A stretch of 64,000 bases of DNA from an uncultured Acidobacteriota bacterium (GTDB lineage: Bacteria > Acidobacteriota > Thermoanaerobaculia > Multivoradales > JAHEKO01). Of the stretch, positions 3,658 to 39,824 are shown piece by piece. Position numbers and translations under genes: made by a program. Under the pieces are notes generated by a model, which was given only the letters and a program-made list of their open reading frames with translations, ran no database searches and was not told the origin of the DNA. Location: the NCBI GenBank assembly GCA_963713825.1, contig CAVQNG010000003.1:256001-320000 (forward strand). The letters run 5' to 3'. Position 1 is the stretch's first letter. Every line of letters starts with the position of its first letter.

Positions 3658-3687
3658 ACGCGACCTTCGGGCGCCGATCCCACAAGG

Positions 3688-5868
3688 TCAGCCGGAAACT
3701 GACACCGTGATGGAGCTGGAGTGAGTCTTGCCGGAATCCGGCTCGGTTGCGGTGACTTTCAGAATGTAGTCGCCCGGTTCCACACCGCTTGCACTCAGGG
3801 TTGCGGCCCATTGTGCAAGGCCAGGCTGGTCACCAGATCTCTGCTCGCCCACATTCAAGAAGACTCTTCCCGCTGGCTTTCTATCGAGCGTGAAAAGCTC
3901 GCCCTGGATCTGGACCGGGTCCCCGATGAAGTACCCAGAGAGGAGTACAGGTGTGCTCTGGCCGGGTACCAGGACAGGCTTGACGGCGGGCTCGAAGGCT
4001 TGTCCCTGCACCGTGAAGGGGTAATCGTGCTCGGACTCCTCGGCGCGCCGGCCACGGATGTTCAGCCACTGCCCCGCCGGTCCGGAAAACAGCGGCGGCA
4101 GCAGGGCCGGCTCCTGCTCACCGGCGTCCGGCACTCGAAACGGAGCTACCGCCACTCCCGAGGTGCCTGTCACCGCATTACGAACCAGCACCCTGGCGAC
4201 GTACTCGCCAGGCGGAACTTCGAACTGACTCCAGAGCTTCAGCCCCTTCTCCTCGAGGGCAGGACCCGCCTTCTGAAGATCGATGCCGAGGATCTGGCTG
4301 TAGTAGTCCCGCACCTCGCCACTCTTCGCGATGGCATAGGCGTAGATCTCAGCGGTGACCTGCCCGCCCTCGGTCCCCTTCAGCAGGTCTGCCCCATTGA
4401 TCTCGACCAACGAGGGTACATAGGCCGGTAGTGAGGCTGTTTTAAAGGGTGCGGCCAGGGTGGCGACGCCCAGCTCTCCGCCAGGCGCACCATAGAGCTG
4501 GGAGGCTGCCGACAGACTGCGCTCCGTCGTTGAGAGTTTGGCATAAGGCCTGGGCGCGAAATAGCCAGGCCGATGGACCAATCGAGCCCCTTTGGGACCG
4601 CCCTCGAGCTTCACCTTCAGTTTGTGGAACTCGCCATCCAGCTTCAGGTCCTCAGCCTGGAAAGCCAGTACATAGGTGACGCTGGTGCGCTCCAGCATCC
4701 TCTCCATGGCCTCGGACAGGTTGTTGAAGTTCTCGAAAAGCTCACCACCCGTGCCGTCGGCCAACATGAAGAGCCCTTGCTTGGTCTCTCGGCGAGCTCG
4801 TTCATCGACTCCTGATCGAAGGCCACCGATGTCGACAGCTTGGATTACGCAGTTAGCTCGCACGAGCTCTTGTAGCACGTGACGGAACTCGGTCTGAGCG
4901 GATGTGTCGCCGAAGCGCAGATTGCTGTCTACATCCTGATACTCGCCCCTGATGGCAGCGGTGTTCTGGCGCCTGATTGCCTCCTGCTCCTCACGAGTGG
5001 CGCCACCGCCCTGGCCGAGAATGATCGAGCTATCGAATCCCTCGGAGAGAAAGACGAGGTACTTTCGCCCATCGACGTTTCGTAGCAATTCGGCAACCTC
5101 TTTCAAAGACCTGGTCAAAGCCAGGATCGCCCTCTTTTCACTTGCCTGTCGAGTCGAAGTCTGACTCTGGGCAATCAGCGCTTCAAGCGTGGCTCGGGGC
5201 GTCGCTAAATCTGATTGAGGATAACGATCTTGGTTATCCTCGCCGGCCACTGCATTCAATGACGGCAGATCGCTTCCCCATGTTTCGGGCAGAGGTGCAA
5301 GCGTAAAGCCCAACGGGTCCCCTTTTGCCGCGACCAGCTGGGGAAGCCCCAAGGTGCCTATCGCAAGGTCCACTTGGCGACGGTCGGAGGAAAATCCGAG
5401 AATCAGCTGGTAGCCTCTGGAAACTTGGTGGGTCGCCACGCCGACCAGATCGGTCGGACTCAGACCGGTGGAGACGAGCTCTTTGGCTGCCTCGCGGGCC
5501 CGGACGATCGAATCGGGCGCAGAGAGTGACAGGTCGAAGAAGAAGAGGAACCGACGCCGGGCAGCGGCCGGAATCCAAGGCGCCATTGGGTCCGGCTCGA
5601 TACCTGCTCCTGACAGATCATAGGCGTCGAAGCCTGTCAGTTCCCGCCGCTTGCGGCCGTCCACGATCTCGAACTGGTCCGGGGTCAGTCCCCGTACCGG
5701 CTTGCCATCCTTGGTCACCTGCACGGGGACCTCGATGACGACCACCTCGGTCACATCCGACACGTTGGTCTTCTTGGCGGCCATAAGGCCGGAACTCGTG
5801 AGGATGCAGCCTGCCGAAAAGAGGAACCAGCCTCTCAGGTAGGTCGACCGTCTCGATGAATACCGCAT
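3688..5868 (-). CDS. VWFA-related (Acidobacterial-type) secreted protein
   Basis: Signal peptide; VPVQVTKDGKPVRGL, FLFFFDLS, RKYLVFLSEGF, LADGTGG and YVLAF...HRPGYF are typical of this family. Confidence 0.85.
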   Translation of the reverse strand: MRYSSRRSTYLRGWFLFSAGCILTSSGLMAAKKTNVSDVTEVVVIEVPVQVTKDGKPVRGLTPDQFEIVDGRKRRELTGFDAYDLSGAGIEPDPMAPWIPAAARRRFLFFFDLSLSAPDSIVRAREAAKELVSTGLSPTDLVGVATHQVSRGYQLILGFSSDRRQVDLAIGTLGLPQLVAAKGDPLGFTLAPLPETWGSDLPSLNAVAGEDNQDRYPQSDLATPRATLEALIAQSQTSTRQASEKRAILALTRSLKEVAELLRNVDGRKYLVFLSEGFDSSIILGQGGGATREEQEAIRRQNTAAIRGEYQDVDSNLRFGDTSAQTEFRHVLQELVRANCVIQAVDIGGLRSGVDERARRETKQGLFMLADGTGGELFENFNNLSEAMERMLERTSVTYVLAFQAEDLKLDGEFHKLKVKLEGGPKGARLVHRPGYFAPRPYAKLSTTERSLSAASQLYGAPGGELGVATLAAPFKTASLPAYVPSLVEINGADLLKGTEGGQVTAEIYAYAIAKSGEVRDYYSQILGIDLQKAGPALEEKGLKLWSQFEVPPGEYVARVLVRNAVTGTSGVAVAPFRVPDAGEQEPALLPPLFSGPAGQWLNIRGRRAEESEHDYPFTVQGQAFEPAVKPVLVPGQSTPVLLSGYFIGDPVQIQGELFTLDRKPAGRVFLNVGEQRSGDQPGLAQWAATLSASGVEPGDYILKVTATEPDSGKTHSSSITVSVSG

Positions 5869-5982
5869 CCGGATCTCCCGAGGCTAGGAGCGTTGAGGGA
5901 TGGGACATCTCCGCTGAACTTCGGTCCTCCAGAGTCTACCGCTTCAGAGACTCCTACGGTCAGACTTTCTCGGAGTTCCCTT

Positions 5983-6055: not shown

Positions 6056-6070
6056 CTGAGGCGAAACAAG

Positions 6071-6451
6071 ATGATCCTGGTCGTCGATCCACACAGCGGC
6101 ACACCGGCCTACCGGCAGATCATGGAGCAGATTCGCTTTCATGTGGACAGTGGGCTGCTCGGCCCAGGTGACGACATTCCGTCCACGCGCACGCTCTCCG
6201 CGGAGCTGGGGGTCAATCCCATGACAGTCAGCAAAGCATTCAGCCTTCTGGAGGAAGAGGGTTTGCTGGAGCGCAGGCCCGGGCTGCCCCTGGTGGTGAG
6301 CCAGAGAGCCTCCAAGGATCAGCGAGCAAGCAAGCTCGAGCAGCTCGACGCTGCCCTGCGGCCTGTGGCCACGATGGCGCGACAGCTCGGTCTCGAATCG
6401 GAGGAGGCCGTCGAGGCCTTCCGCCGCCTGCTCGAAAGCAACGAGGAGTGA
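6071..6451 (+). CDS. GntR family regulator, YtrA subfamily
   Basis: 126 aa; PAYRQIMEQIR...LGPGDDIPSTRTLSAELGVNPMTVSKAF wHTH with a short C-terminal helix; precedes an ABC ATPase. Confidence 0.93.
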   Translation: MILVVDPHSGTPAYRQIMEQIRFHVDSGLLGPGDDIPSTRTLSAELGVNPMTVSKAFSLLEEEGLLERRPGLPLVVSQRASKDQRASKLEQLDAALRPVATMARQLGLESEEAVEAFRRLLESNEE

Positions 6452-9960: not shown

Positions 9961-10013
9961 GATCGACCTGACCGCTCTCGCAGCCAGGCCTATCCCTCAG
10001 GTCAATTTACTCT

Positions 10014-10799: not shown

Positions 10800-11305
10800 C
10801 CCTCGGCCCTCTCGTACTGGATCTCCATCGCCTTGAACTCCTGCCCCTCGCGGGTGAAGAAGCTCTCCATCGAGTGGTGGTCGTCGTCCTTCAGGGTGAT
10901 CACTGAGCGCTTCGACATCGTTCCGCCCTCGGGATCGACCATCTCACTGGTCATCGTCCAGACTTTGCCCGTCTCGTCCACACTGCCGGTCTCGAGTTGC
11001 ATTATGGTGCTGGCGTTGTCGATCCAATAGCCCTCGAACCGTTTGGCCATCCGGTTGTAGCCCCAGAAACCGTGGCCTCTGAAGCTCGGGAAGGGACCGT
11101 CATTGGGATCCCCGACGTATTTCTGGCGCAGGTAGCGCCCATCGAGAACCATGATGTTGGTCATGGTGCCGGTAGAGACCATGGGGTCTCCGGGGCCCAT
11201 CCAGAGTTGCACCTCGGCACGAAAGGTCCCGAGGAACGGCCTCAGGAGCTTGTGCTCCGGGCCTGGAGACATGGCTTCCGCACCCGCCTGTGCTTCTTCC
11301 GTCAT
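10796..11305 (-). CDS. DUF1579 family protein
   Basis: PGPEHKLLRPFLGTF, LDGRYLRQ, GHGFWGYN...GYWIDNASTI, MEIQYER. GGAGG RBS; stop overlaps the methyltransferase ATG. Confidence 0.85.
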   Translation of the reverse strand: MTEEAQAGAEAMSPGPEHKLLRPFLGTFRAEVQLWMGPGDPMVSTGTMTNIMVLDGRYLRQKYVGDPNDGPFPSFRGHGFWGYNRMAKRFEGYWIDNASTIMQLETGSVDETGKVWTMTSEMVDPEGGTMSKRSVITLKDDDHHSMESFFTREGQEFKAMEIQYERAEG

Positions 11306-11309
11306 GAAC

Positions 11310-12765
11310 TCACCTCCGAAACAGCGTGAATGTTGCGGGCATTCTAGCCGATCGGGCGCGAGACCACTCGAGTGCGACAAGGGCGGCGAAGAGTCCATAC
11401 TCCAGCCAGAGCCACCATGCTCGCTCGATGCCGTCGAGGTAGATCAAGTAGGACAGCAGGCTCAGCCCTGTCAGGCCAATCCAGGACCAGCACCCCACAA
11501 CAGCCGCCAAGGGCAACGCCCAAAGCAGATACCAGGGCATGACAGCAGAGTGCAGGAGCACGACCGCCGCGAGAATGAAGAAAGCGACCCTGAGGATGCT
11601 GTCCTTCGAGGGGCGTGAGAACCACGGCAAGACAACAATCGCCACCAGGCTCAGGAGCTTTGTCGTCCAGTGGGCCCAGGCCGTCGGATCGGAGGTGCCA
11701 GCCACCTTTGCCAGCCAGCGGATAGCGGCCCAGGGGCCGGAGTTGAAGGTCCATTCCCGGGCGTAGGCACCCAGGCCGCCCGACAGTGCCACCAATCCAC
11801 CGAGCATTGGCAGGCTACCGAGCGCAAGCACGGCGAAAAGAACGACACCAGAGGACAGGTCGGGTGTGCCGTAGGAAGAGAACTCCGAGAGCCGCCGACC
11901 CTACCTTCGCCAGGATGCTGAGCGCCAGAGCTCCGAGTGCCGCCGCCTGGCGCTTCTGGACCAGGCAGAGCAGGGCCAGCATCATCAGAAACACCATCAC
12001 CGCGTCGAGGTGGCCCGAGCCGGCGAACTCCTTGATCGCCAGCGGATTCCACGCGTAGAGGAGGACGTACGATCGGTTCCTCCCAACGGCTCCAAGAAGC
12101 GAGAGCACCACCCAGCAGGTACCCAGATCGGCGAGGACGATCAGCAGCTTCCAGACGAAGACACTGGCAGGTGCCAGCCGATTCGAGAGGCCAAAGAGAT
12201 ACTGGGCCAAGGGCGGGTAAACCGTTCTGTAGCCCTGGAAGCTGACGTTGTCGACGACATCCCACCAGACTTCTTCTTCAAGAAGCGCGGCGTGGGGCTC
12301 CGATCCTTCCTCGGCAGAAGTGATGACTTCCTGCGGCGTAGTCTCGTAGGGAGAGACCCCGTTGGCCGTCAGATGCCCGTCCCAGAGATACCGCCAAACA
12401 TCGTTGTCGTAGATGAGAAACGGGGAATAGCCAGTCGCTGTTCCCGAGAGGTCGTTCGCCAAGGCTGCCACCGGCCTATCGTGAGGCAAGCCCGCAAAGA
12501 GTAGAATGAAGCGGAAGACCACCGCGAAGGCCAGAATCGTGGCCACCGAGGCGCGCTTTCGGTCGCTCTTGCTGTGAACCAGCAGAGCAGCCACTGCGTA
12601 AATAGCAAATAGCGCCCCAAAGGCCACGAGGAAGCCGACCACATCTCGCAGTGCGTTGGAGAATTGCAGGCGGAAGGCGACAAGGAGATAGACGAGAGCG
12701 GAGAGGGACCCGAGAAGTGCCACCGGTACCCGTCCTTCGAGTCGTTTCCAAAACCTGGCCATCAT
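11310..12765 (-). CDS. GT-C fold membrane glycosyltransferase (GT87/DUF2029-like); frameshift near 11846
   Basis: DNDVWRYLWDG, TVYPPLAQ, YAWNPL...GSGHLD, then in the shifted frame WTFNSG and VMPWYLLW; multiple TM helices. Confidence 0.8.
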
Positions 12766-12800
12766 CTACCTCGATTGAACGACTTGAAACGGACCCCATT

Positions 12801-13199
12801 ATGCGACGAACAGCGCTCATAGCCACCGTCATTCTGTTTTTGACCGGAATCCCCGGTCTCGAGGCGTCGACGCCGAACCAGGGAGCCTCCGATGCCCCGC
12901 ACGAGTTGCCGACCGGAGCCTCGGCAACCGCGGTCGTCGCCCATCTCAAGTGCACGATTACCGAAGTCCGCCCGGGCCAGGTCCTGAGGATTCTCGACGA
13001 CGAGACCGAGCAAGTTCATCTGCTCGAGTTCACGCCCTCGATTCCTCTGCAGGCCAAGAACAAGAAATCCTTCGATGGTCGCAAGGACCTCGACTTCGAG
13101 GATCTGGCCGCGGGACAGCGAATCAAGATCACCTACAAGATCGCAACGAACGAGATCTTGAAGATCAAGGTCCTCGACCAGGCTCCCGTTCTACGCTGA
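12801..13199 (+). CDS. Small secreted hypothetical protein (OB-fold-like)
   Basis: Signal peptide; C-terminal FEDLAAGQRIKITY pattern. Confidence 0.6.
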   Translation: MRRTALIATVILFLTGIPGLEASTPNQGASDAPHELPTGASATAVVAHLKCTITEVRPGQVLRILDDETEQVHLLEFTPSIPLQAKNKKSFDGRKDLDFEDLAAGQRIKITYKIATNEILKIKVLDQAPVLR

Positions 13200-13233
13200 G
13201 ATTCCCAACCGCCGAAGTCGTAGAATCGTCGCG

Positions 13234-13981
13234 ATGCTGATCCGACGGTGCTGGATCGCTGTTGCTCTGTTGTTGGTCTGCGAACTCGCGGTCGCCGACG
13301 AGATCAGGGTCGCTGTAGCCTCGAACTTCGCAACCACCTCCGAAGCGATTGCCCAGCGATTCGAAGAGATCACGACCACACAAGTAATCCTGGTCTTCGG
13401 CTCGACGGGAAAGCACTACGCCCAGATCCGGAATGGAGCCCCATTCGAGGTCTTCTTTGCCGCCGATGCGCGGCGCCCTGAACTGCTGGAGAGCGCTGGC
13501 CTGACGGTGCGTGAGAGTCGCTTCACCTACGCTATCGGCCGACTCGTTCTGTGGAGCCCCGAAGAAGGACTCTGTCGATACCGAGGGGCGAATCCTCGAT
13601 AGCGGTGACTTCAGACATCTCGCCATTGCGAACCCCGAGCTCGCTCCTTACGGCAGGGCCGCGCAGGAGATGCTGCAGTCCCGTGGGCTCTGGGCGAGCC
13701 TCGAGCGACGCCTGGTGCGCGGTGAGAACATCGGCCAGGCCTTCCAGTTCGTCAAGAGCGGCAACGCAGAGCTGGGATTGGTCGCCTTGTCACAACTGAC
13801 GAGCCCCGAACGAGAATCGGAGGCAGGCTCGCGATGGGTGGTGCCGGAGACTCTCCACTCACCCATCCAGCAGCAAGCGGTCCTTCTTGTAGACACAGCC
13901 GCGGCGCGCTCCTTCCTGGAGTTCATCAAGAGTAGCGAAGCCAGATCCATCATCCGAAGCCACGGCTACCAGACTCCCTGA
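13234..13981 (+). CDS. modA: Molybdate ABC transporter substrate-binding protein; frameshift near 13560
   Basis: [27 protein letters not shown]; second frame [25 protein letters not shown]. Confidence 0.92.
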
Positions 13982-13998
13982 GTAAGATCCCTTCGACC

Positions 13999-14679
13999 AT
14001 GCTCACCGAGACCGATCTCGCGGCGCTCTGGATCACCCTGAAGTTGGCGGGGCTCACCACTCTGATTCTCATTCTCGTGGGCACACCGCTGGCCTGGTGG
14101 CTTTCCCGCACCCGCTTCCGAGGCAAGGTGATCGTGGAAGCTATTGTGGCTCTGCCTTTGGTACTGCCACCCACGGTATTGGGCTTCTACCTTCTGTTGG
14201 CTCTGGGGCCACACGGTCCCGTCGGCAAGATGATGCAGGCAATGGGAGGCCACGCACTCGCCTTCACCTTCGCAGGTCTCGTGGTGGGCTCGGTGCTCTA
14301 CTCCCTGCCCTTCGTGGTCCAACCGCTGCAGGATGCCTTTGCCACCGTTGGCAGGCGCCCCCTGGAAGTGGCAGCCACCCTTCGGGCTTCACCCTTGGAT
14401 CGTTTCCTCACCGTGGCGGTGCCTCTGGCCCGGCCAGGATTCCTGACCGCCGCGGTTCTCGGTTTTGCCCACACGGTGGGCGAATTCGGTGTCGTCCTGA
14501 TGATCGGCGGCAGCATCCCCGGTGAGACCCGGGTCCTGTCTATCGCCATCTACGAGCACGTCGAGGCGCTCGAGTACGGCCGGGCTCATGTGCTGGCGGG
14601 AGGGCTGTTGATCCTCTCATTCTTCCTGCTGCTGGCGGTCTACGCATGGAATCGACGCTTCAGGCTGGTGCCCTCATGA
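13999..14679 (+). CDS. modB: Molybdate ABC transporter permease
   Basis: [42 protein letters not shown]. Confidence 0.96.
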
Positions 14680-15743
14680 GCATCGAAGCGAGATTGCGGA
14701 TCGACCACGGGGCTTTCATCCTCGACGCCGAGTTGTCGGTGCCCGATCGCGGCGTGACGGCGATCTTCGGACCTTCCGGGTGTGGCAAGACCACTCTCCT
14801 GCGTGCGATCGCAGGTCTCGACCGCGGACCCGATGGCTACCTGAAGGTAGGCGAAGCTATCTGGCAGGACGCAGACACCTTCATCCCGCCCCACCGACGC
14901 CCGCTCGGCTACGTCTTCCAAGAAGCGAGCCTTTTTTCTCACCTGTCGGTGAAAGGAAACCTCGAGTACGGCTACAAACGGGTGGCACCCGGCGAGAGGC
15001 GGGTGGCCTTGGACCAGGCTACGGAGCTCCTGGGAGTCGACCCTCTCCTGAATCGCGATACGGATGACCTGTCGGGAGGCGAGCGTCAGCGGGTGGCTAT
15101 CGCCAGGGCCCTGTTGACGAGCCCTGATTTGTTGCTCCTGGACGAACCACTGACCGGTCTGGACGTGGACAGCAAAGCGGAGATCGTGCCGTACCTGGAG
15201 CGACTCCACGAAGAGCTCGAGATTCCGGTCCTCTACGTCAGTCATTCGCCTGACGAGGTCGCGCGTCTGGCCGACCACATAGTGCTCTTGCAGGCCGGCA
15301 GGGTTCTCGCTGCAGGCGAAATCCGGCAGATGCTGACCCGCAGCGATCTGCCACTCTTCCACGGCGACGAGGCCGAGGCGATCCTCGAGGCTACCGTCGT
15401 CGGTCACGACGAGACCTACGAGCTCACTCATCTCGAGTTCCCAGGTGGGCGCTTCAACGTAACCCGCAGTGATCTGGAGGTCGGCCAGCTCGTGCGGCTC
15501 CGCATCCTGGCCCGCGACGTCAGCCTCACCCTGGAGCACCAGACCGACACCAGCATCCTCAACATCATCCCGGTGACCGTGGAGGAGCTCATCCCTGAAG
15601 GCCCAGCACAGGTCATGGTGAGACTCTCGGCTGGCGGCATGCCCATCCTCTCCCGCATTACCCGACGCTCGGCGGACGCGCTCCAACTCGCCCCAGGCAA
15701 GCGGGTCTACGCCCAGATCAAGACCGTCGCACTGCTGGCTTGA
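14676..15743 (+). CDS. modC: Molybdate ABC transporter ATP-binding protein
   Basis: [17 protein letters not shown]-terminal TOBE/Mop domain (TSILNII...VYAQIK). Confidence 0.96.
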
Positions 15744-15819
15744 TTCGATCTGTCGGTCCGATCTCCTCCAATCGCCTCCCGGAAGCGGTGGGTGCCGGGT
15801 GTTTCTAGAGGAGCTTTCA

Positions 15820-15865
15820 TTGACAAAATGAAACGTTTGTTTAATATGACCGTTTGAAACAGCGA
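15820..15865 (+). promoter_or_regulatory. Sigma70 promoter with overlapping probable TetR operator
   Basis: TTGACA 15820-15825, TAATAT 15842-15847; imperfect palindrome TGAAACGTTTGTTTAA between them, in an AT-rich patch. Confidence 0.6.
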
Positions 15866-15878
15866 TTGGGAGCCATCT

Positions 15879-16586
15879 ATGGAAACCCCCACGAGCCACT
15901 GTGATCACCTTCCCGACCGAGAGGAGACCCACGAGAGGATCCTCCAGGCTGCCGAGAATCTCTTCTCCTCCAAGGGATTCGAGGCCACTTCGGTACGTGA
16001 CATCACCACCGAGGCCAGCTGCAACGTCGCCTCGGTGAACTATCACTTCGGCGGCAAGGAGAACCTCTACCTCGAGACCTTCCGGAACCTCTTGAGCGAA
16101 GTCCGAGACCGGCGAATCGAGTCGATGCGCCGCGACATGGCCGCGAGACCCGACATGAGCCTCGAGGACTTCGTCGAGAGCTTCGCCTCGGCCTTCATGG
16201 AGCCGCTTGTGGACCAAAGTCGTGGCCGGTTCTTCCTGGGCTTCTTCGCCCACGAGTTGAACGATCCTCATCTTCCTCCGCGAGTCTTCGTCGAGGAGTT
16301 CATCCGACCGCTCGCCCAGGTCTCGATCGAGGGCTTCGAGCAGTTCGGACCGCCCATGGAGCCGATGGTGCAGCGACTCTGCCTCATGTCGGTGGTCGGT
16401 CAGCTTCTGCACGCCCTCAAGGCCCGTCTTCTTTTCTCGGACGACGTCGAGCCCGTCATGGTGCCAGCCGATTTGCAGGAGCATGTGCGCCACATCATCC
16501 GCTTCTCGGCAGGCGGCATCCGGGCCTGTGCCGCTACCCAGTTGAAGCCCGCCGAGACAGCTCCGACCACAGAGGCAACATCATGA
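15879..16586 (+). CDS. TetR family regulator (CecR/CerR-like, DUF1956 C-terminus)
   Basis: RILQAAENLFSSKGFEATSVRDIT...VNYHFGGKENLY; C-terminal HIIRFSAGGI. Confidence 0.92.
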   Translation: METPTSHCDHLPDREETHERILQAAENLFSSKGFEATSVRDITTEASCNVASVNYHFGGKENLYLETFRNLLSEVRDRRIESMRRDMAARPDMSLEDFVESFASAFMEPLVDQSRGRFFLGFFAHELNDPHLPPRVFVEEFIRPLAQVSIEGFEQFGPPMEPMVQRLCLMSVVGQLLHALKARLLFSDDVEPVMVPADLQEHVRHIIRFSAGGIRACAATQLKPAETAPTTEATS

Positions 16587-18079
16587 TTCGATCCACATGG
16601 CTCGCCGCGGTGGTCGCAGGTGCCACCCTTTTTTGGTTGAGTGGCTGTACCCTGGGGCCGGACCCTGCCCGACCTGTCACGGCAGCCGACGCCGCCGACA
16701 CCTACGTCTATGCCAAGGCCCAGGAATCCATCGATTCTCCCTCCGTCACAGCCTGGTGGAGGACTTTCGGCGACCCGACAACAGTCGAATTGGTCGAGCT
16801 CGCGCTGCAGAACAACACCGATCTGCAAGCCGCTGCGGCGCGGGTTCTCGAAGCCGAGGCTGCTCTTCACCGGGCCCGTGGTGCCCGACTGCCCCAGGTG
16901 GGAGTCGGTGCTTCCGCCACGGACCAGAGGTTTTCGTTCGTCCTCCCCGAGGTCGGCCGCCGAACGATCGATTCAACCACCTATTCCTACAACTTCAACG
17001 TCTCCTGGCAGGCTGACCTGCTGGGTCGACTCAAGCGCACACAGCAGGCCAACTGGGCAAGCCTCATGGCTCAAGAGGAGGCACAGGAGGCCCTGGTCCA
17101 TACGGTCGTTTCCCTGGTCGTCCGCTCGCGAGTCCTCGTGGCGACTGCCGAGCGGGCCCTCGAGATCACTCGGCAGATCACCAAAAGCTGGGAGTCGACG
17201 ACCAACACGGTCGAGCGTCGGTACCGCGCCGGCCTGGCGGGAGCCGTAGAGCTTCACCTCGCTCGCGAGAATCTAGCCGCCGTGCGCGCTTCGGAAGCGG
17301 TCATCGCCGGCCAGCTGGATCAGGCTCGACTGGCACTCGATGTCGTGGTGGGAAGGCGACCTGGCAGTAGCGACCCACTACCCGACACGCTCCCCGAGCT
17401 ACCATCTCTGGAGCCGGTCCCGCTCGGTCTTCCCGCCTCCCTGCTCGATCGTCGTCCAGACTTGCGACAGGCGGAGATGCAACTCGCCGCCGCGACCTAC
17501 GGCGTCGGCGCCGCCATCGCCAACCTCTATCCCGACCTCAGTCTCACCGGGTCGATCGGCGCCTCGGCCGACAAGATCAACGACCTCACCCTCGACGACG
17601 GTTTGGTCTACAACGCAGTGGCCAATCTCGTCGGGCCGATCTTCTCGGGCGGTCAGCGCCGTGCCGACGTGGACGCGGCCAAGGCCCGCGTCGAACAGGC
17701 AACCGCCCTCTACGCAGGTGCCGTGCTCACCGCCTTGCGCGAGGTCGAGGATGCCCTGGTTCTTGGTGAGTCGACGACTCTCAACTGGGAATTCTCGGAT
17801 CTGCGGGTCTCTGAAGCGCGCGCCGCCGATCGGCTCGCAAAACAGCGCTACCAGCGAGGCGTGGAGACCCTGCTTACGGTTCTTGAAACCGAACGCCGAT
17901 TGCGCCTAGCGGAGCAGGCCATCATCACCGCTACTGCGGATGTCTGGAACGCGCGCATCGACTTGTTTCTGGCCCTGGGTGGGGACTGGGGAACCGACTT
18001 GCTCGTGACCGAAGCCGCCGCACCAGAGTCCGACGAGGACCCCACTCAAGAAATATCCGCCAAGACTTCAATCCGCTGA
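16583..18079 (+). CDS. Efflux outer membrane factor lipoprotein (NodT/TolC family)
   Basis: Lipobox LSGC-TLGPD, WWRTFGD, LLDRRPDLRQAE, LFLALGGDW. Confidence 0.95.
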   Translation: MIRSTWLAAVVAGATLFWLSGCTLGPDPARPVTAADAADTYVYAKAQESIDSPSVTAWWRTFGDPTTVELVELALQNNTDLQAAAARVLEAEAALHRARGARLPQVGVGASATDQRFSFVLPEVGRRTIDSTTYSYNFNVSWQADLLGRLKRTQQANWASLMAQEEAQEALVHTVVSLVVRSRVLVATAERALEITRQITKSWESTTNTVERRYRAGLAGAVELHLARENLAAVRASEAVIAGQLDQARLALDVVVGRRPGSSDPLPDTLPELPSLEPVPLGLPASLLDRRPDLRQAEMQLAAATYGVGAAIANLYPDLSLTGSIGASADKINDLTLDDGLVYNAVANLVGPIFSGGQRRADVDAAKARVEQATALYAGAVLTALREVEDALVLGESTTLNWEFSDLRVSEARAADRLAKQRYQRGVETLLTVLETERRLRLAEQAIITATADVWNARIDLFLALGGDWGTDLLVTEAAAPESDEDPTQEISAKTSIR

Positions 18080-18116
18080 GAGTGACTCGAGCTAGCTTTC
18101 TATACGAGGTGCTGTG

Positions 18117-19313
18117 ATGTCAGGAAAGAAATTCAAGTTGGTCCTACCCGTCGTGGTGCTGCTGGCAGGTGCCGCGCTTGCAGCCATGATCGTCGCTTCA
18201 CGCAAGACACCGCCTCGCGTCGAACGCCCTCAGCTCGGGCCGCTCGTGGAAGTCATCGAGGCTGACGTGACCGAGGTTCCAGTTACGGTCACCGGACATG
18301 GCGAGGTTGTTCCCAAGGTCTCCGTCGATGTCGTTCCCCAGGTGGCCGGACAGGTCGTCAAGGTCCACCCTTCACTGGTCGCGGGTGGATTCTTCCGCTC
18401 GGGTGATGTCTTGGTGGTCATCGACCCGCGCGACTACGAGCTCGCCGTCGAGCGGGCCCAGGCCGCGGTAGCCAGGGCTCAGGTGACCCTGGAGCGCGAG
18501 CAGGCGGAAGCAGAGGTGGCTCGCGAGGAGTGGGACGTCCTGAACCCTGGCCAGGAGCCCTCCTCCGGACTCGTGGTAAGAGAGCCGCAGGTGCGGCAAT
18601 CCGAAGCCGAACTCGCGGGAGCGATCGCTGAGCTTTCAGCGGCTGAGCTCAATCTGCAGCGCACTCGGATCAGCCTGCCCTTCGACGGGGTCGTGGTCTC
18701 CGAGAGTGTCGATGTGGGCCAGATCGTCGGTACTGGCAGCCAACTGGCCACGGTCTACGGTAAGGACGTGGTCGAAGTCCGGGTCCCTCTGGACAGTCGC
18801 GAGCTGGCCTGGTTCTCCGTCCCGGCCCCGGGTGAGCAAGGGGCCATGGTGGAGGTCAGTACCTCTTTCGGTGGCGCCCGGCGAATCTGGGAGGGACGAG
18901 TCAAACGGATGGAGGCAGAGGTCGATCAGCAGTCCCGCATGGTGCACGTGGTGGTCGAGATTCCCGACCCCTACGAGATCTCCGATGGGCGGCCCGCCCT
19001 GCTGCCCGGAACTTTCGTCGACGTCAGCATCTTCGGCCGCGCGCTGACCGACGTGGTGGCCATTCCTCGCCACGCGGTTCGTGAGGGCGGCGGACTCTGG
19101 GTGATCGAAGATGGCAAGCTGAGAATCCGGGAGATCGAGGTATTACGATCCGATCGCAAGCAAACCCTCGTATCGTCCGGTCTTTCCCAAGGCGACCTGG
19201 TGATCGTCAGTTCCATCGATGCGATAACCGACGGCATGCTCGTCCGCGTGGCGAACGGTGATTCCGTCGATAGTCCTGGTGAGCCCGATCAGACTCAGGG
19301 AGGTGCAGCGTGA
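18117..19313 (+). CDS. RND efflux periplasmic adaptor (MFP)
   Basis: N-terminal TM, PQVAGQV lipoyl half, RTRISLPFDG, LLPGTFV. Confidence 0.93.
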   Translation: MSGKKFKLVLPVVVLLAGAALAAMIVASRKTPPRVERPQLGPLVEVIEADVTEVPVTVTGHGEVVPKVSVDVVPQVAGQVVKVHPSLVAGGFFRSGDVLVVIDPRDYELAVERAQAAVARAQVTLEREQAEAEVAREEWDVLNPGQEPSSGLVVREPQVRQSEAELAGAIAELSAAELNLQRTRISLPFDGVVVSESVDVGQIVGTGSQLATVYGKDVVEVRVPLDSRELAWFSVPAPGEQGAMVEVSTSFGGARRIWEGRVKRMEAEVDQQSRMVHVVVEIPDPYEISDGRPALLPGTFVDVSIFGRALTDVVAIPRHAVREGGGLWVIEDGKLRIREIEVLRSDRKQTLVSSGLSQGDLVIVSSIDAITDGMLVRVANGDSVDSPGEPDQTQGGAA

Positions 19314-22300
19314 GTGCAGATCGCAAGGGTCCGCTGGCCTGGTTCGCCACCAACCATGTAGCGGCCAACATCCTGATGCTGTTCATCCTGGTGGCTGGAG
19401 GGCTGTCGCTGGCTAGCGTGGTCGTCGAAACTTTTCCCGAGTTCGACGCCGGAATGATCACGGTCCGTGTTCCCTACCGCGGCGCCTCACCGGCAGAGGC
19501 CGAGGAAGGAGTCTGTGTTCGCGTCGAGGAGGCGATCGCTTCGATCGAGGGGATCAAGCGAATCCGCTCGACAGCCCAGGAGAACCTGGGGCTGGTGACA
19601 GTCGAGCTCGAAGAAGACGCCGACAATCGAAAGGTGCTGGACGACGTCAAGGCAGCCGTCGATCGTATCGAGACCTTTCCGCTCGAGACCGAGAAGCCGG
19701 TCGTCGCCGAAGTCGAAACCCGGCGCCGAGTGATCACGATCGTGCTTTCCGGCGAAGCTTCCGAGAAAAGCCTGAAAGCTCTGGCCGAGCGCGTCCGTGA
19801 CGAATTGACCGCATTGGAAGGCATCTCACAGGTGGAGATCACCGGCGTTCGCAACTATGAGATCTCTATCGAGGTATCGGAGGACGCCCTGCGCCGGTAC
19901 GGCCTCAGCTTCCAGCAGGTTTCGAATGCCATCGCGATGTCCTCCCTCGATCTGCCAGGGGGAGCTGTCAAGACGAGTGGTGGCGAAATCCTCCTGCGCA
20001 CGAAAGGCCAGATGTACCGCGGCTCGGAGTTCGAGGACATCGTCGTGGTCACGAGAGCCGATGGTACCCAGGTCCATCTCGCCGATGTCGCCACGGTCGT
20101 CGACGGCTTCGAGGACACCAGCAACGCGACCCGTTTCGATGGCAAGCGAGGAGTCCAGATCCAGGTCTACAGAGTCGGCGGTGAAGGCGCACTGCACATC
20201 GCCGACACAACCAGACAGTATGTCCACGATCTCGAGGCGGTTCTACCAGCTGGAATCACGGCTGACACCTGGGATGACGACTCCGTCATCCTGCGGCAAA
20301 GGATCGGGTTGCTGCTGCGCAACGCTCGCCTTGGCCTGATTCTGGTCTTCCTCTGTTTGACCCTCTTTCTGAACCTGCGACTCGCTTTCTGGACGACGAT
20401 GGGAATCCCCATCTCCTTCCTCGGCGGCTTCTGGCTCGTGCCCCACTTCGATGTGACCATCAACATGATCTCGCTCTTTGCCTTCATCATTGTCCTCGGC
20501 ATCGTGGTCGATGACGCCATCGTGGTCGGCGAGAACATCTACGAGCATCTGCAGCAGGGAATGAAGCCCATCGATGCTGCCATTCGTGGCGTTCGCGAGA
20601 TGGCGATCCCGGTGACGTTCGCGATCCTCACCTCGATAGCGGCCTTCGCACCGCTGCTCTTCGTTGCCGGCAACATGGGCAAGGTCATGCGCCAGATCCC
20701 GATCGTCGTGATCTCGGTTCTGATCATGTCCCTGGTCGAGGCGCTGCTCATCCTTCCAGCTCATCTGTCCGGTGACGGCTGGCGATCGCACCGCTTCATT
20801 CGGCCACTCATCGAGTTCCTGGAGGGCATACAGAACCGGGTGCAAGAGTGGCTTCAGCGGTTCATCGATGGCCCCTACCGAAGGAGCCTCGATTTTGCAG
20901 TCGAATGGCGCTATCTGACAGTGGCAGGAGCCATCGTCTGCTTGCTGCTGGCAGGCGCGCTGGTAGGAGGCGGCTATCTCAAGTTCAGCTTCATGCCCAA
21001 GGTCGACGCCGACAACATGGTGGCCATGCTGACCATGCCCCAGGGAACACCCGCGGAGCAGACAGCGAAGGTGCTGGAACGGGTCGAGAACGCCGCGGTT
21101 CAGGTAGCCCGTCAGAACGACGAAGGGCAGCCCGATGGCGCGCCATCGATCATCCAGCACATGTCGACGACCATCGGTGATCAGCCTAGAGCCGGGGGTG
21201 GCGGGCCCATGGCCCAGAAATCGACTGCCGGTGACTCCTCCCACCTGGGTGAGGTCAACATCGAACTGCTGGGCTCGGAGTCACGGGACATCAGCTCTGC
21301 CGTGCTTCTGGGCCGTTGGCGGGACCTCGTCGGAGAAGTCCCTGGCGTCGTGTCGCTGACGTTTCAGGCCAACCTCTTCTCCGCCGGAGACCCCATCAGT
21401 GTCCAACTCGCCCATCGAGATTTCGACACCCTGCTGGCAGCGGTCGATCGGCTGAAGGGAATCATCGCCGAATACCCGGGTACCAAGGATGTGGCCGATT
21501 CCTTCTTGCCAGGCAAGAAGGAGCTCAAGCTAACCCTAACGCCCGAAGGACGAGCCGCTGGCCTGACGTTGTCGGATCTCGCTCGACAGGTTCGAGCCGG
21601 CTTCTATGGCCAGGAAGTCCAGCGCGTCCAGCGAGGGCGCGACGATGTCCGCGTCATGGTGCGTTACCCCGAGGCCGAGAGGCGCTCGATGGGTGATATC
21701 GAAAGGGTCCGGGTCCGGCTCCCTGACGGCAGCGAAGTGCCCTTCGCGACGGTGGCCAGTATCGAGGAAGGCAGAGGCTACGCGGTGATCAACCGTACTG
21801 ATCGGCGACGCGTCGTCACAGTGTCTTCCGATGTCGACGAGGCCGTGGCCAATGCCAACGAGATCAACGCGGACCTGCGCAGCGATGTCTTGCCCCTGCT
21901 GGCAGCTGAATATCCCGGCCTGACTTTCGATTTCGAGGGCGAGCAGCGTGAGCAGCAAGACGCCATGGGCAGCATGGCTCGCAACTTTCTCGTCGCCCAG
22001 ATCGCGATCTTCGCCATCCTGGCGATCCCCTTCAAGTCCTATACGCAGCCCCTGATCATCATGTCTGCGATTCCCTTCGGCCTGGTTGGTGCGGTTCTGG
22101 GTCACCTGATCATGGGCCTGAACCTGACACTACTGTCCATCATGGGCATGATCGCGCTGACTGGAGTCGTGGTGAACGACTCCCTGATTCTGATCGACCT
22201 GATCAATCGTCTGCGAGCCGAAGGCAATTCGATCAACCAGGCAATTCGCGATGCCGGAATGCGCCGTTTCCGACCAATCATGCTGACCACGGCCACGACG

Positions 22301-35582: not shown

Positions 35583-36167
35583 CTATCGACCCTCGTTCTT
35601 GAGAATCTTGTCCCACTTGGTGCCCATCTTCTTGAAGACGTTGTCGATCTGCTTGTCGATCTTCTCCGGCTTTTCCTTGAGCGTCACAGTTCCGGTGCCT
35701 CGCCAGATCAGTTGCTTGTCGCCTGCTTCGTAGGCATCGAGGATCAGGGTACCGTCGGTGTAGGTCGTAGCCCGCGTGGTCGTGGTGCCCATGCCGCCGT
35801 AGTAGCCACCGTAGCCGCCGTAGCCGTAGCGCCCGTAGCCACCCCAGCCCGGACCCCAGCCACCGTAACCGTAGTTGTCGGTGGTGAAGACCGTATTGTC
35901 CTCGGTTGTAACGTGGAAAGTGACGTAGATGTCCCCACCGGAGTCGGCCTGCTTCAACCCGCCGGAAGTCAGGCTGGCGATCATCTTGTCCTTGATGCGA
36001 TTGTCGGCCAGATCGTTGCCGGTATTGGAGTCCGGAGTATCGACATAGGTAAACGTCTTGACCTGCTCGAAATCGAAGTCGTGAGCGTAGTCGATCGTGA
36101 TCTTCTGTGCGATCGAGGGTGCTGCGACAATCGCCAATGCGATCATCAGAATCATCATCTTCTTCAT
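35583..36167 (-). CDS. DUF4136 domain secreted protein
   Basis: Signal peptide, DYAHDFDF..VKTF, Gly/Tyr-rich loop, YTDGTLILD...LIWRG. Confidence 0.88.
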   Translation of the reverse strand: MKKMMILMIALAIVAAPSIAQKITIDYAHDFDFEQVKTFTYVDTPDSNTGNDLADNRIKDKMIASLTSGGLKQADSGGDIYVTFHVTTEDNTVFTTDNYGYGGWGPGWGGYGRYGYGGYGGYYGGMGTTTTRATTYTDGTLILDAYEAGDKQLIWRGTGTVTLKEKPEKIDKQIDNVFKKMGTKWDKILKNEGR

Positions 36168-36335
36168 ATACCTTCTCCTTTCGTTGAGGGATGGAACGAC
36201 TTGCCCTTCCACTCTAACCCCCTGTGTCTACGAAATCCAGGTCTTTCGGTTTCGTCCAAGGCTTCGAATCCGGTGCGTAGACAGGCCTGCGCTTGACCTG
36301 CTGCGCTCCAGAGGGGGAAACTGGAGCCGACAGAC

Positions 36336-36410
36336 AGCCTAGGGGTGGCCACTCGGCCTGAGATGAAACCCTCGAACCTGATCCGGGTCATACCGGCGAA
36401 GGGAACGGCG
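36336..36410 (+). ncRNA. TPP riboswitch (THI box)
   Basis: AGGGGTG...CTGAGA...ACCC.CGAACCTGATCCGGGTCATACCGGCGAAGGGAA fits the TPP aptamer core. Confidence 0.93.
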
Positions 36411-36485
36411 ACACCGACCCCACAACAGTGTCGATTGGATCTCGAGCTCGATCCGAGTCGGTCGGACCCCGAGGGGAGACCGGCC

Positions 36486-38639
36486 ATGGGATTGAACAGC
36501 ACCAGACACACGCTATGGCTCGTCCTGGCGGCGATGCTGGTACCCGTGCTCTCGTTCGGTGCGACTGCTCAGGATACGACCGAGACAAACGAAGAGAAGA
36601 ACGAGGAGTCGGAGTCGCCCGCAGCCGTCGAAGAGACGATCACGGTCATCGGAATTCGCGCCGGCGACGAGGTGCCGGTCACCAAGACCAATCTCGATCG
36701 GGAACAGATCGACACCCTCAACTATGGCCAGGATGTGCCCCAGCTTCTGCAGTACACCCCGGCGATGACGTGGTACTCGGATTCCGGGATCGGAACCAAC
36801 TATTCCTACTTCAGCATGCGTGGCATCCAGCAGACCCGCATCAACATGACCTTCGACGGCGCACCTCTCAACGACCCGGCCGAGCACGCGGTCTACTTCA
36901 ACAACTTCCACGACTTCACCAACACGGTCGACAGCATCCAGATCCAGCGCGGCGTCGGTACCTCGTCGGTCGGCTCGCCCTCCTACGGGGGATCAGTGAA
37001 CTTCGCCAGCTCCCAACCGGCTCAGGATCGGAGCGGCGACCTTCGCCTCGCCCTCGGCTCCTACGACACCAAGAGAGCATCGTTCGGCTACGAGTCCGGC
37101 GTCTTCGAGAACGGGTTCTCTGTCGGCGGCCGGTTCTCCTACGCCGACACCGATGGATACCGGGACAACTCCGGGACCAAGCACCAGACGGGCTTTCTCG
37201 ATGCGGGATGGCAAGGCGAGCGATCCTCGCTGAAACTGGTCTCGTTCTTCGGAGAGGTCGAAACACAACTGGCCTGGCTGGCGGTCGAGCCGGAGATCCT
37301 GCAAGTCGACCGGAGGTTCAATCCCCTCGATGAAGAGGAGCGCGACAACTTCCGCCAGAACTTCGCTCAGCTCAAGTACACCCGCGCGCTGCGCAACGAC
37401 ACTCTGCTGACAGCTTCCCTCTACTACAACGGAGCGGATGGCTGGTTCCGCCTGTGGGACGTTCCCGCGGTGAAGGCCAACCTGCTCCAGTTCGGCATCG
37501 ATCAGGCGTTCGTCGGCAGCATGGTCACGGCCAGCAAGAGCTTCGACCGTCTATCAGCCACGCTTGGCGTGCACTTCAACGACTTCCGAGGCGATCACAC
37601 TCTGGATATCCGACGGATACCGCATCTACGAGAACACAGGCTACAAGCAGACGGCCAACGCGTTCGGTAAGCTCGAATACCGCCTCGACGACTGGCTGCT
37701 GTTCGGCGACCTTCAGCTGCGATGGGCTGATTTCTCGTACAAGGGCGACATCGATCTCGGCTCGGTGGCCTGGACATTTCTGGACCCCAAGATCGGAGTG
37801 CGGCGCTTCGTCTCACCTCGGCTGAGCGTCTACGCCTCTCTCGGTCGGGCTCAACGTGAACCTGCACGACTGGATCTGCTGCTCGGCGAGGACAATGCCA
37901 CGGTGCCGCACGATCTGGAGGCCGTCCGCCCCGAGACGGTGCTCGACTTCGAAGCCGGGCTCGACCTCAACACGCCAGAGCTAGCGCTCACAGCCAATAT
38001 CTATGCAATGGAGTTCACCAATGAGATCGCCTTGACCGGCGAGCTTTCCGAAATCGGCCTGCCCATTCGTACCAACGTAGACGAATCGTATCGGCGGGGC
38101 CTCGAGGTCGACCTCAAATGGCAGGCTTCCGAGAGGTGGGCCCTCCTCCACAGCTCCAATCTGAGCCGCAACCGGATTCGCGAGTGGACCCAGTTCTACG
38201 ACGTCTACGACGAGCAGGGTTCCTGGATCGCCAGTGAGCCGATCACCTACAGGGACGTGCCACCCTTGCTGACCCCAGAGGTCATCGCCAACCTGGGCGT
38301 CGAATGGACTCGCTCGGGGGCGAGCGTAGCCCTGATGGGCCGCTATGTGGACGACGCCCAACTCGACAACACCGGTCTCGAAGAATTCCGCCTACCCTCC
38401 TACACCAATCGTCGACCTTCGCGCCTCGGTGAATCTCGGTCGATGGTGGGCCTCCGCCAACCCGCGACTCACCCTCTTCATCAACAATCTCTTCGACAGT
38501 GAAGACCCGTACCCGAGCGGCTACAGCTACCAGTTCATCAACCAGGACAGCAGTGGCCAGCAGACCCTCGACGGCAATCCCGTTCTACTATCCGTTGGCC
38601 ACCCGCAACGCGGTCCTGACGCTGGAGCTGGACCTTTGA
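36486..38639 (+). CDS. TonB-dependent receptor, probably for thiamine; frameshifts near 37610, 38410 and 38580
   Basis: Signal peptide, TonB box EETITV, plug GQDVPQLL..TP, MRGIQQTRIN, IQIQRGVGTS; barrel continues across frames to YYPLATRNAVLTLELDL. Confidence 0.88.
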
Positions 38640-38652
38640 CCTCCAGCCACCC

Positions 38653-39244
38653 ATGATCTCTCTCGAGCTCGTTGCGGTCGTCCTTACCCTGCTCGCCGTT
38701 GTCCTCACGGCGCGACAGGTCATCTGGTGCTGGCCGCTGGCCATGGTCAGCGTCACCCTGTACGCCGTGGTCTTCTTCCAGGCCAAGCTCTATGCGGACA
38801 TGGGGCTGCAGGCCCTCTACTTCGGGCTCGCGATCTACGGTTGGTGGGCCTGGCTTCACGGCGGTGGGGATCATGGGGAGCTCCACGTGACCCTGGCGTC
38901 GACCAAGATGAGGGTGGTTCTGGCTGTAATCGGAGCGGTGGCCGGCGATTCTGCTCGGGCAGACCCTGAGCCGTCTCACCGATGCCTCGCTGCCGTTCAT
39001 GGATTCGGCCCTGACCGCCTTCAGCATCGTCGGGCAGTGGATGCAGACTCGCAAACTGCTCGAAGCCTGGTTGGTCTGGCTCGCGGTCGATGTCTTCTAC
39101 GTCGGCATGTTCCTCTACAAGGGCCTCTACCTGACCGCCGGCCTCTACGCGGTCTTCCTGGTTCTGGCGGTCATGGGGTATCTGAGCTGGCGTCGGTCTA
39201 TGGACGACGGTCGGCTACAGCCGGCCACCCTGGAGAGCCAATGA
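38653..39244 (+). CDS. pnuC: PnuC-family vitamin transporter (PnuT-like by context); frameshift near 38950
   Basis: WCWPL, LYADMGLQ..YF...IYGWWAW; DSALTAFSIVGQWMQTRKLLEAWLVWLAVD. Confidence 0.88.
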
Positions 39245-39757
39245 TCCGCGTGGTCGTAACTGGCTCGGAGTGCACGGGCAAGACCACCCTCGCCATGGAG
39301 CTCGCCGAGCACTACGGCACGGTCTGGGTGCCCGAGTTTGTTCGGCAGTTTGTCGAGGCAAAGGGATCCGCCCCGGAGTACGCAGACGTCGAGGCGATTG
39401 CCCGAGGTCAGATAGCGCTCGAAGACCGAATGACCGCGAAGGCCGCCGAGGTGCTGATCCAGGACACGGATCTGCTCAGCACTGTGGTCTACAGTCAGCA
39501 CTACTACGGGGATTGTCCGAGGTGGATCGAGGAAGAGCTTCGCGCACGAGCTGGAGATCTCTATCTGCTAGCCTGCATCGACGTGCCATGGTCCCGGACG
39601 GCGACCAACGCGATCGCGGCAACCGGCGCGAAGAGATGCACGGTCTCTTCCGTGCCGCCCTCGAGTATCGCGGCTTCGAACTTCGTGGAGCTCCACGGAT
39701 TCTCCTCGCGAACGGTTGAGCATGGCACTATCACAGATCACAGAGGCTGCTCGCTGA
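39241..39757 (+). CDS. NadR-type (AAA_28) kinase domain protein; frameshifts in the 3' third, end approximate
   Basis: VVVTGSECTGKTTLA, VWVPEFVR, IARGQ, DTDLLST, DLYLL..IDVPW(V)PDGDQRD; ATGA overlap with pnuC. Confidence 0.82.
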
Positions 39758-39824
39758 GCAATCCTGATGTTGTAGGATGAAGGTATATCGACGGACTGAA
39801 CCACAATTTCTAGGAGGTTTACTG

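Follow-up and report, generated by a model that had tools for sequence, protein, structure and literature searches.

In a 64,000-nucleotide stretch of DNA from an uncultured Acidobacteriota bacterium, probably of class Thermoanaerobaculia (contig CAVQNG010000003.1, positions 256,001 to 320,000; hereafter called the window), a riboswitch for thiamine pyrophosphate (TPP) leads three tightly packed genes that encode a TonB-dependent outer-membrane receptor, a Pnu-family facilitator, and a small stand-alone P-loop kinase carrying a single AAA_28 domain of the NadR ribosylnicotinamide-kinase type. From the comparative evidence described below, we consider it quite likely that this operon serves thiamine acquisition in a thiamine auxotroph, and that its last gene encodes a non-orthologous thiamine kinase, which would replace ThiK by converting Pnu-imported thiamine to thiamine monophosphate (TMP) and thereby trapping it. 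A first-pass annotation of the window, made from the letters alone, had offered three readings of this arrangement: a NadR-fold kinase recruited to trap thiamine, a kinase for a thiamine precursor, or salvage of NAD precursors cross-regulated by TPP. The comparisons support the first of these, and it is the reading we favor.

Gene content and gene neighborhoods of kinase carriers

The genome to which the window belongs (5.42 Mb in 38 contigs, 96.4% complete) appears to have few routes to TPP. Specifically, searches of this genome found no ThiC, no ThiE and no thiamine pyrophosphokinase (TPK), and no ThiD above its cut-off. A tblastn search with E. coli ThiK returned nothing below an E value of 0.9, and the ThiK model TIGR02721 gave no match. 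ThiL is encoded (225 bits against a cut-off of 184), and no substrate other than TMP is known for this enzyme. Because ThiE is missing, TMP should be obtainable only by phosphorylating thiamine. The operon holds the only Pnu gene found in the genome, and a whole-genome search with the Rfam model RF00059 returned a single TPP riboswitch, located in front of this operon. No NadR fused to a nicotinamide mononucleotide adenylyltransferase (NMNAT) domain was found in the genome. A second AAA_28 match (C3:817261-817719) was considered as a candidate NadR and rejected, as it is a different P-loop protein that has no NMNAT domain.

Gene presence was then tabulated for 45 chosen Acidobacteriota genomes besides that of the window, which were grouped by gene context before counting and in which ThiK was scored as present when a match exceeded the TIGR02721 cut-off. 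The 22 additional operon carriers have no ThiC, TPK or ThiK, only one has ThiE, and all 22 have ThiL. The first-pass annotation had suggested asking whether operon genomes lack thiK or TPK, and these counts answer in the affirmative. For 13 genomes from the same family or order that do not have the operon, the corresponding numbers are 12 with ThiC, 13 with ThiE, 13 with ThiL, and none with TPK or ThiK. Ten genomes with a fused NadR include eight with ThiC, eight with ThiE, nine with ThiL, and again none with TPK or ThiK. We attach no statistic to these counts because the genomes are kin. The retention of ThiL together with the absence of TPK points to a two-step route that passes through TMP. 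No match above the TIGR02721 cut-off was obtained in any of the 46 genomes of the Acidobacteriota set, or in any of the 30 genomes of the gammaproteobacterial set discussed below.

The gene order is conserved far beyond the window. Relatives of the kinase are encoded at 80 loci on public contigs, and a Pnu gene lies directly upstream in 78 of them. To detect aptamers at these loci, 22 Rfam-confirmed aptamers of the operon were used to build a covariance model, and 65 loci were assessable in that at least 3300 nt lie upstream of the kinase. The complete layout of aptamer, receptor, Pnu gene and kinase is present at 54 of the 65, with the aptamer about 3 kb upstream of the kinase, which excludes a chance arrangement and bears out the synteny that the first-pass annotation had proposed to check. 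The 54 include one locus (L148) where the unit of TPP riboswitch and receptor lies on the opposite strand, convergent with the Pnu-kinase pair. Another locus has the receptor and Pnu genes with no aptamer, and another has its aptamer downstream of the kinase. With the Rfam model alone, 14 of the 16 operon loci of the phylum sample passed, as did all seven family-level loci; one of the remaining phylum-sample loci was recovered by the operon-derived model only, and the other lies on a contig that is too short.

Some loci deviate in gene number or order. At L074 (genome G191, 2769-5465) the kinase comes straight after the TPP riboswitch and receptor, with no intervening Pnu gene, and L066 from a congener has the usual order. 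Two copies of the receptor-Pnu-kinase set occur on one chromosome (L098 and L105) and in one other genome (L100 and L101), and L105 has no detectable TPP aptamer.

True NadR proteins occupy different surroundings. A match to the kinase at E ≤ 1e-10 is present in 28 of the 201 genomes of the phylum sample. Fused NadR proteins, in which NMNAT (CTP_transf_like) and AAA_28 domains are joined, were found in ten genomes and at a second locus in an eleventh. A Pnu gene lies nearby (tblastn, E ≤ 1e-4) at nine of these 11 loci, and a TPP riboswitch at none of the 11. Moreover, trees of the kinase domain contain a branch that splits the stand-alone from the fused forms, with SH-aLRT values of 99 (34 rows) and 98 (86 rows); these were quick searches with midpoint rooting and no bootstraps, from which rows shorter than 130-140 residues and identical duplicates had been dropped. 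Two genomes, G049 and G084 (loci L072 and L073), have neither ThiC nor ThiE, keep ThiL, and carry only a fused PnuC-NadR pair with no TPP-linked operon. At locus L078 (genome G122), a c-di-AMP riboswitch occupies 5993-6137 on the + strand (75.5 bits), and a fused NadR gene on the opposite strand (4977..5972) starts some 20 nt away.

A second type of neighborhood links the kinase to thiamine by way of an unrelated transporter. On a contig whose title assigns it to an Arenicellales metagenome-assembled genome (L139, 4423-8516), a TPP riboswitch (63.2 bits) begins 45 nt after the kinase gene and precedes thiB, thiP and thiQ, each of which exceeds its NCBIfam equivalog cut-off; no Pnu gene is present there. 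Within the 81 genomes of this gammaproteobacterial order, 14 carry the stand-alone kinase at a total of 15 loci (L164-L178). At 12 of these loci, distributed over 11 genomes, the order of kinase, TPP riboswitch and thiB is contained within 1.5 kb. Two such arrangements, each on its own contig, occur in a single genome (G236).

Thiamine genes in this order were compared between all 14 carriers and 16 non-carriers taken in the order of their handles; no completeness values are given for these genomes. ThiE and TPK are found in none of the carriers and ThiL in all 14, as against 11, two and 12 of the non-carriers, respectively. The two genomes with TPK belong to the five non-carriers without ThiE, and neither has ThiL. 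Thus, ThiE-less genomes have either TPK without ThiL or the kinase with ThiL, as would be expected if the kinase makes TMP.

The riboswitch and its three genes

The aptamer spans positions 36331-36422 on the + strand and is compact, its P3 stem being minimal. It matches RF00059 over the full length of the model (positions 1-105) with 56.7 bits, as compared to a gathering score of 54.3, and an E value of 1.8e-08. The small margin is due to the minimal P3, and the match bears out the clear TPP aptamer claimed at first pass. No other Rfam family exceeds its gathering score within the 64-kb window. An alignment with 21 aptamers that occupy the same operon position in relatives has 49 invariant columns, and the sensor-helix blocks CUGAGA and ACCUGAUC..GG...A.ACCGGCG.AGGGA are invariant or nearly so across the 22 sequences. 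With the Rfam model, the aptamers of this operon in relatives score 55.6-72.6 bits.

As a group, the aptamers of this operon nearly lack P3 and score just over the Rfam cut-off. An orthologous aptamer in L057 (8675-8766) falls under that cut-off and yields 88.8 bits with the operon-derived model. Scans that use the Rfam threshold will overlook some aptamers of this type. In one of 41 genomes compared with the window (G006), only a 37-nt piece of the riboswitch matches. Summed contig depth in four metagenome runs is 3 to 50 times greater over the aptamer (36300-36416) than over the genes, and many loose contig ends fall at 36368-36408. This depth is uninformative regarding the organism studied here because contigs from other organisms match the conserved aptamer core.

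Between the aptamer and the first gene lies a leader (36423-36485, + strand), the putative expression platform, that contains a purine-rich ribosome-binding site, GAGGGGAG, at 36471-36478, 8 nt before the ATG. The minimum-energy fold of the leader includes a hairpin that pairs the region of the ribosome-binding site and AUG, with a z-score (-0.77) that is not significant. No terminator-like site and no sigma-70-like promoter were found between the aptamer and the ATG, and the three terminator-like matches returned by the scan are within the number expected by chance (2.1). The position of the hairpin hints at translational control, in which TPP binding might hide the ribosome-binding site.

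The receptor gene (36486-38639, + strand) begins with the ATG at 36486, ends with the stop codon at 38637-38639, and encodes about 716 amino acids when read through the frameshifts described in the next section. It has Pfam matches to Plug (52 bits) and TonB_dep_Rec_b-barrel (78.6 bits) in separate frames, and an intact 716-aa orthologue from the same-genus genome G004 aligns to it in four collinear tblastn pieces (frames 1, 2, 3 and 1; 85-90% identity). The presence of the riboswitch suggests that its substrate would be thiamine.

The Pnu gene follows at 38653-39244 (+ strand; stop codon 39242-39244) and encodes 196 amino acids read through. Its match to PF04973 is split between two frames (83.6 and 96.8 bits), and the intact G004 orthologue matches the same family end to end with 185.7 bits. 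The sequence WLVWLAVD corresponds to the family motif WxxW(x)3D. Passages of a study of Shewanella woodyi PnuT (Jaehme et al., 2018; PMC5749112) place this motif, WxxW(x)3D/N, in the sixth transmembrane segment and describe it as binding the substrate in both PnuC and PnuT. Our provisional assignment of the protein as a predicted PnuT, a thiamine facilitator, comes from the riboswitch and the context.

The kinase gene (39241-39767, + strand; about 174 amino acids read through) starts with an ATG at 39241 that overlaps the Pnu stop codon as ATGA. The first-pass annotation had ended the feature at 39757; the locus it outlined is real, but the kinase stop codon lies at 39765-39767, past an indel near 39741. 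Its description of three packed genes downstream of the aptamer, the last being of NadR/AAA_28 type, agrees with the Pfam matches. The protein encoded in the window scores 99.5-101.7 bits with PF13521, and its intact 172-aa orthologue from G004 scores 134.1 bits over positions 1-164. Neither the 172-aa nor the 174-aa protein has an NMNAT domain, as AAA_28 is the only domain present. Conserved features in an alignment of 34 sequences include the Walker A sequence GSECTGKTT, the Walker B sequence DTD and the arginines of the lid; residues G8, G13, K14, E32, R35, D75, R124 and R130 are invariant.

Comparisons of the orthologue with NadR kinase domains of known structure (8x7f, 9x6f, 1lw7 and 6gye) give E values of 5e-11 to 2e-05. 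An AlphaFold model built from the 34-sequence alignment (pLDDT 94.2, pTM 0.90) was searched with Foldseek, and the nearest structures are NadR 8x7f_A (TMq 0.90, root-mean-square deviation 2.0 Å), then 1lw7, then thymidylate kinases; a TMq of 0.79 was also recorded for the NadR kinase fold. Judged from its sequence and predicted structure, the protein is of the same type as the kinase domain of NadR and is complete as a small-molecule kinase. NadR itself is ruled out both by the absence of an adenylyltransferase domain and by scores far under the NCBIfam NadR cut-offs (models TIGR01526 and NF005988; 91.5 versus 341 bits and 59.7 versus 201 bits). Likewise, it is no member of the ThiK equivalog families (TIGR02721 and NF007620), from which it differs in fold, and any correspondence to ThiK is one of functional analogy only.

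Relatives of this protein are abundant, with at least 3844 clusters (90% identity) matching the kinase at E ≤ 1e-20. Among the best 120 of these clusters, where a name is given at all, the JGI name is ‘NadR type nicotinamide-nucleotide adenylyltransferase’, despite the absence of any such domain. The first-pass annotation had warned that default annotation would point to nicotinamide riboside. This warning was well placed, given that the Pnu protein passes the PnuC equivalog model and that the kinase relatives bear a NadR name without the matching domain.

Upstream of the riboswitch, a gene for a DUF4136 protein (35583-36212, - strand) is oriented divergently, and at the equivalent place in the nearest relative is a 194-aa open reading frame (L002, 5048-5632). 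Downstream, a gene for a Ysc84-domain protein begins at 39777 and is not conserved at this place; in the closest relative, a different open reading frame, sulfatase-like as judged by eye, follows the kinase.

Frameshifts and the condition of the operon

None of the three genes can be read in one frame in the window. A three-way alignment with two same-genus genomes reveals eight single-base indels that are private to the window. The receptor gene has insertions near 37609, 38409 and 38582, the Pnu gene has an insertion near 38946, and the kinase gene has a deletion near 39591 and insertions near 39681, 39699 and 39741. The first-pass annotation had raised the concern that such frameshifts are real and the operon dead. 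Our data indicate instead that the eight indels are most likely errors of sequencing or consensus in the assembly, and that the operon is probably alive.

Several observations converge on this answer. Nine relatives give full-length, single-frame tblastn matches for whichever operon genes their contigs cover, and only the genes of the window break into pieces that lie in different frames. In contigs that are 90-99% identical to the window and come from three other studies, the extra bases of the window are absent and its missing base is present at least at 38405/38410, 38575/38576, 38946, 39594, 39677, 39699 and 39741/39743. Contigs that extend across 37609 have one gap each, and the base at 38946 is absent from the contigs of runs X1 and X2; stretches without contig cover in runs X2, X3 and X7 were given no weight. 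When the window genes are read in the frame of the relatives, there is no in-frame stop codon. Furthermore, the ratio of nonsynonymous to synonymous changes (pN/pS) on the branch to the two relatives is about 0.14 per gene (460, 159 and 90 codons compared, restricted to codons on which both relatives agree).

Similar defects occur elsewhere in the window. Five more single-base indels (9637, 11845, 13372, 13384 and 13567) lie in a 6.9-kb flank with 95% identity to the nearest relative, and they split three genes that are intact in G004 (332, 484 and 248 aa); a further 4.2 kb has none. Frameshift errors therefore appear to be scattered through this assembly, and gene calls across the genome should be treated with caution.

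There is a small chance that the operon of this genome is instead a recently decayed pseudogene cluster, with real indels, in a strain that no longer uses it. The eight indels fall within 3.4 kb, a density above that of the flank, and they are private to this assembly and lie outside long homopolymers. In addition, identity to G004 is only 84% over the operon (36300-39800), as against 95-97% over the syntenic flank (window positions 8882-20000), which lies on the same G004 contig. This difference may mean that the locus is an island that has diverged or recombined, possibly with a tie to the higher indel density. It is on account of this density and divergence that we reserve some probability for recent inactivation. 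Against decay stand the open frames and low pN/pS, the three window genes that are split in like manner, and the intact frames in 95-99% identical contigs from three other studies. Moreover, loss of the operon would leave the strain with no visible route to TPP, since it has no ThiC, ThiE or TPK and would forfeit its sole TPP riboswitch and sole Pnu gene.

A proposed thiamine kinase among alternatives

The favored reading implies a simple uptake-and-trap scheme. When cellular TPP is low, the riboswitch would permit translation of the operon mRNA, and the TonB-dependent receptor would carry thiamine across the outer membrane. The Pnu-type facilitator would then allow thiamine to diffuse over the inner membrane, whereupon the kinase would use the gamma-phosphate of ATP to phosphorylate thiamine on its hydroxyethyl group. 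The resulting TMP would be trapped in the cell, and ThiL, encoded elsewhere in the genome, would complete the synthesis of TPP. The kinase itself would be derived from the ribosylnicotinamide-kinase domain of NadR, without the adenylyltransferase domain.

Parts of this scheme have a published basis. Passages of Jaehme et al. (2018; PMC5749112) describe PnuT as a facilitator that binds neither TMP nor TPP; thus phosphorylation can trap the vitamin, and a trapping kinase is needed. The Pnu protein of the window resembles S. woodyi PnuT by family and by the WxxW(x)3D motif, and facilitated diffusion through either protein would require phosphorylation in the cytoplasm. The partner kinase of S. 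woodyi PnuT is different. Most gut Bacteroidetes carry a TPP-regulated OMthi-pnuT-tnr3 operon, as set out in passages of Costliow and Degnan (2017; PMC5613172), which has the same TPP riboswitch, TonB-dependent receptor, Pnu facilitator and (as predicted here) thiamine-phosphorylating enzyme, and hence the same logic of uptake and trapping. However, the last gene of that operon encodes a thiamine pyrophosphokinase that makes TPP from thiamine in one step, whereas here a P-loop AAA_28 kinase fills the slot. We therefore do not class the window operon as an OMthi-pnuT-tnr3 operon, because its last gene is not a TPK (PF04263) and TPK is found in none of the 45 Acidobacteriota genomes nor in that of the window.

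The PnuC-NadR system for salvage of nicotinamide riboside (1LW7, 8X7F and 6GYE; PMC7221760) also combines a Pnu facilitator with a kinase of the same fold. It differs in that the kinase of the window has neither the NMNAT nor the helix-turn-helix domain, falls into a distinct clade, is either under TPP regulation or next to thiBPQ, and is carried by thiamine auxotrophs. E. coli ThiK (YcfN; EC 2.7.1.89) catalyzes the reaction proposed here (thiamine + ATP to TMP + ADP), at the same step before ThiL, but has an APH/choline-kinase-like fold unrelated to that of the window kinase. In the full-text literature searched, which did not extend to supplements or to SEED and RegPrecise, no paper ties a NadR-like or AAA_28 kinase to thiamine or TPP riboswitches. 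As far as these searches show, the system of riboswitch, receptor, Pnu protein and trapping kinase is known, and what appears to be new is this kinase family in that role.

A number of observations weigh against a dedicated thiamine kinase. The kinase core is scarcely different from that of NadR kinase domains, as only one column is strongly class-specific under the thresholds chosen (Tyr in stand-alone and Trp in fused forms). The Pnu protein exceeds the NCBIfam PnuC equivalog cut-off (78.4 versus 42.45 bits), and a Pnu tree of 30 rows, with long branches and no characterized PnuT included, does not separate riboswitch-linked from NadR-linked proteins (3 changes) and thus supports neither side. 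Nine of the 65 assessable loci have only the Pnu and kinase genes, with no receptor and no TPP riboswitch, and both of the tested genomes with such riboswitch-less pairs are ThiE-positive. A pair of Pnu and kinase genes with no riboswitch is found in the cultured Salidesulfovibrio brasiliensis JCM 12178. One Methylococcaceae genome has the full operon plus ThiE, as does the lone ThiE-positive Acidobacteriota carrier (G003, 87% complete and 5% contaminated). Loci of the gammaproteobacterial order have the kinase upstream of the riboswitch, so that it is not itself TPP-controlled there. Weak similarity to APH-family ThiK is present in eight of the 14 carriers there (64-74 bits versus a cut-off of 299), a possible source of thiamine kinase, and such weak matches also occur in 11 of the 16 non-carriers (45-77 bits). 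Finally, genome incompleteness limits every statement that a gene is absent.

These points feed the most serious rival, namely an enzyme that accepts both nicotinamide riboside and thiamine, or one that prefers nicotinamide riboside and has a thiamine side activity in auxotrophs. Both substrates are cationic N-heterocycles with a primary hydroxyl, and the catalytic and most conserved columns of the protein are common to NadR kinase domains. The PnuC-like score of its partner and the occurrence of some clade members without a riboswitch in ThiE-positive genomes fit such an enzyme as well. We nonetheless judge dual specificity unlikely, because the clade stands apart from fused NadR and is linked to thiBPQ where Pnu is absent, because carriers retain ThiL but are without any other means of converting thiamine to TMP or TPP, and because the genome of the window has no NMNAT-fused NadR.

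Much less probable is that the kinase acts on an imported precursor, hydroxyethylthiazole or hydroxymethylpyrimidine, or that it is a nicotinamide riboside kinase cross-regulated by TPP. Phosphorylation of nicotinamide riboside is the sole characterized activity of the family, and TPP riboswitches in other bacteria also control transporters and kinases for thiamine precursors. Phosphorylated precursors, however, could not be coupled in cells without ThiE, which is found in one of 22 Acidobacteriota carriers, none of 14 gammaproteobacterial carriers and not in the genome of the window, where ThiD is also under its cut-off. That ThiL is kept by 22 of 22 Acidobacteriota and 14 of 14 gammaproteobacterial carriers suggests that the product is TMP. 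Cross-regulated NAD salvage is disfavored by the true PnuC-NadR pairs of the same phylum, which form a separate clade and have no TPP riboswitch at any of 11 loci, and by the link of the kinase clade to thiBPQ without Pnu. Least probable of all is that the protein, instead of being a metabolic kinase, works as an ATPase in gating or regulating the transporter. The gene is always beside a transporter, and NadR was proposed in the early literature to regulate PnuC. Yet this protein accompanies two unrelated transporter types, Pnu and ThiBPQ, and has a full small-molecule-kinase fold with lid, for which thymidylate kinases are the nearest structures after NadR. In addition, its carriers have a kinase step missing.

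Returning to the reading of the protein as a thiamine kinase, we hypothesize that the stand-alone NadR-like kinases probably form a large, previously unrecognized thiamine kinase family that arose from the nicotinamide riboside kinase domain of NadR. If so, they would supply the salvage enzyme that has been missing for thiamine auxotrophs among the Acidobacteriota, the Gemmatimonadota and a marine gammaproteobacterial order, and they would pair with Pnu or ThiBPQ, exclude TPK in auxotrophs, and require ThiL. Thiamine salvage is thought to require ThiK or TPK. Both are missing from whole lineages described here, which nevertheless retain ThiL together with an uptake operon under TPP control. 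A third family of thiamine kinases, unrelated to these two, would fill this pathway hole in bacteria that are abundant in soils, sediments and the sea. Many ‘NadR’ and ‘PnuC’ annotations in environmental genomes would then be wrong, and models of vitamin B1 auxotrophy based on ThiK and TPK alone would misjudge these lineages. Predictions of how microbial communities depend on vitamin B1 and exchange it would improve once the family is taken into account. The family would also provide a clear case of an enzyme domain that, together with its Pnu partner, exchanged one cationic vitamin for another.

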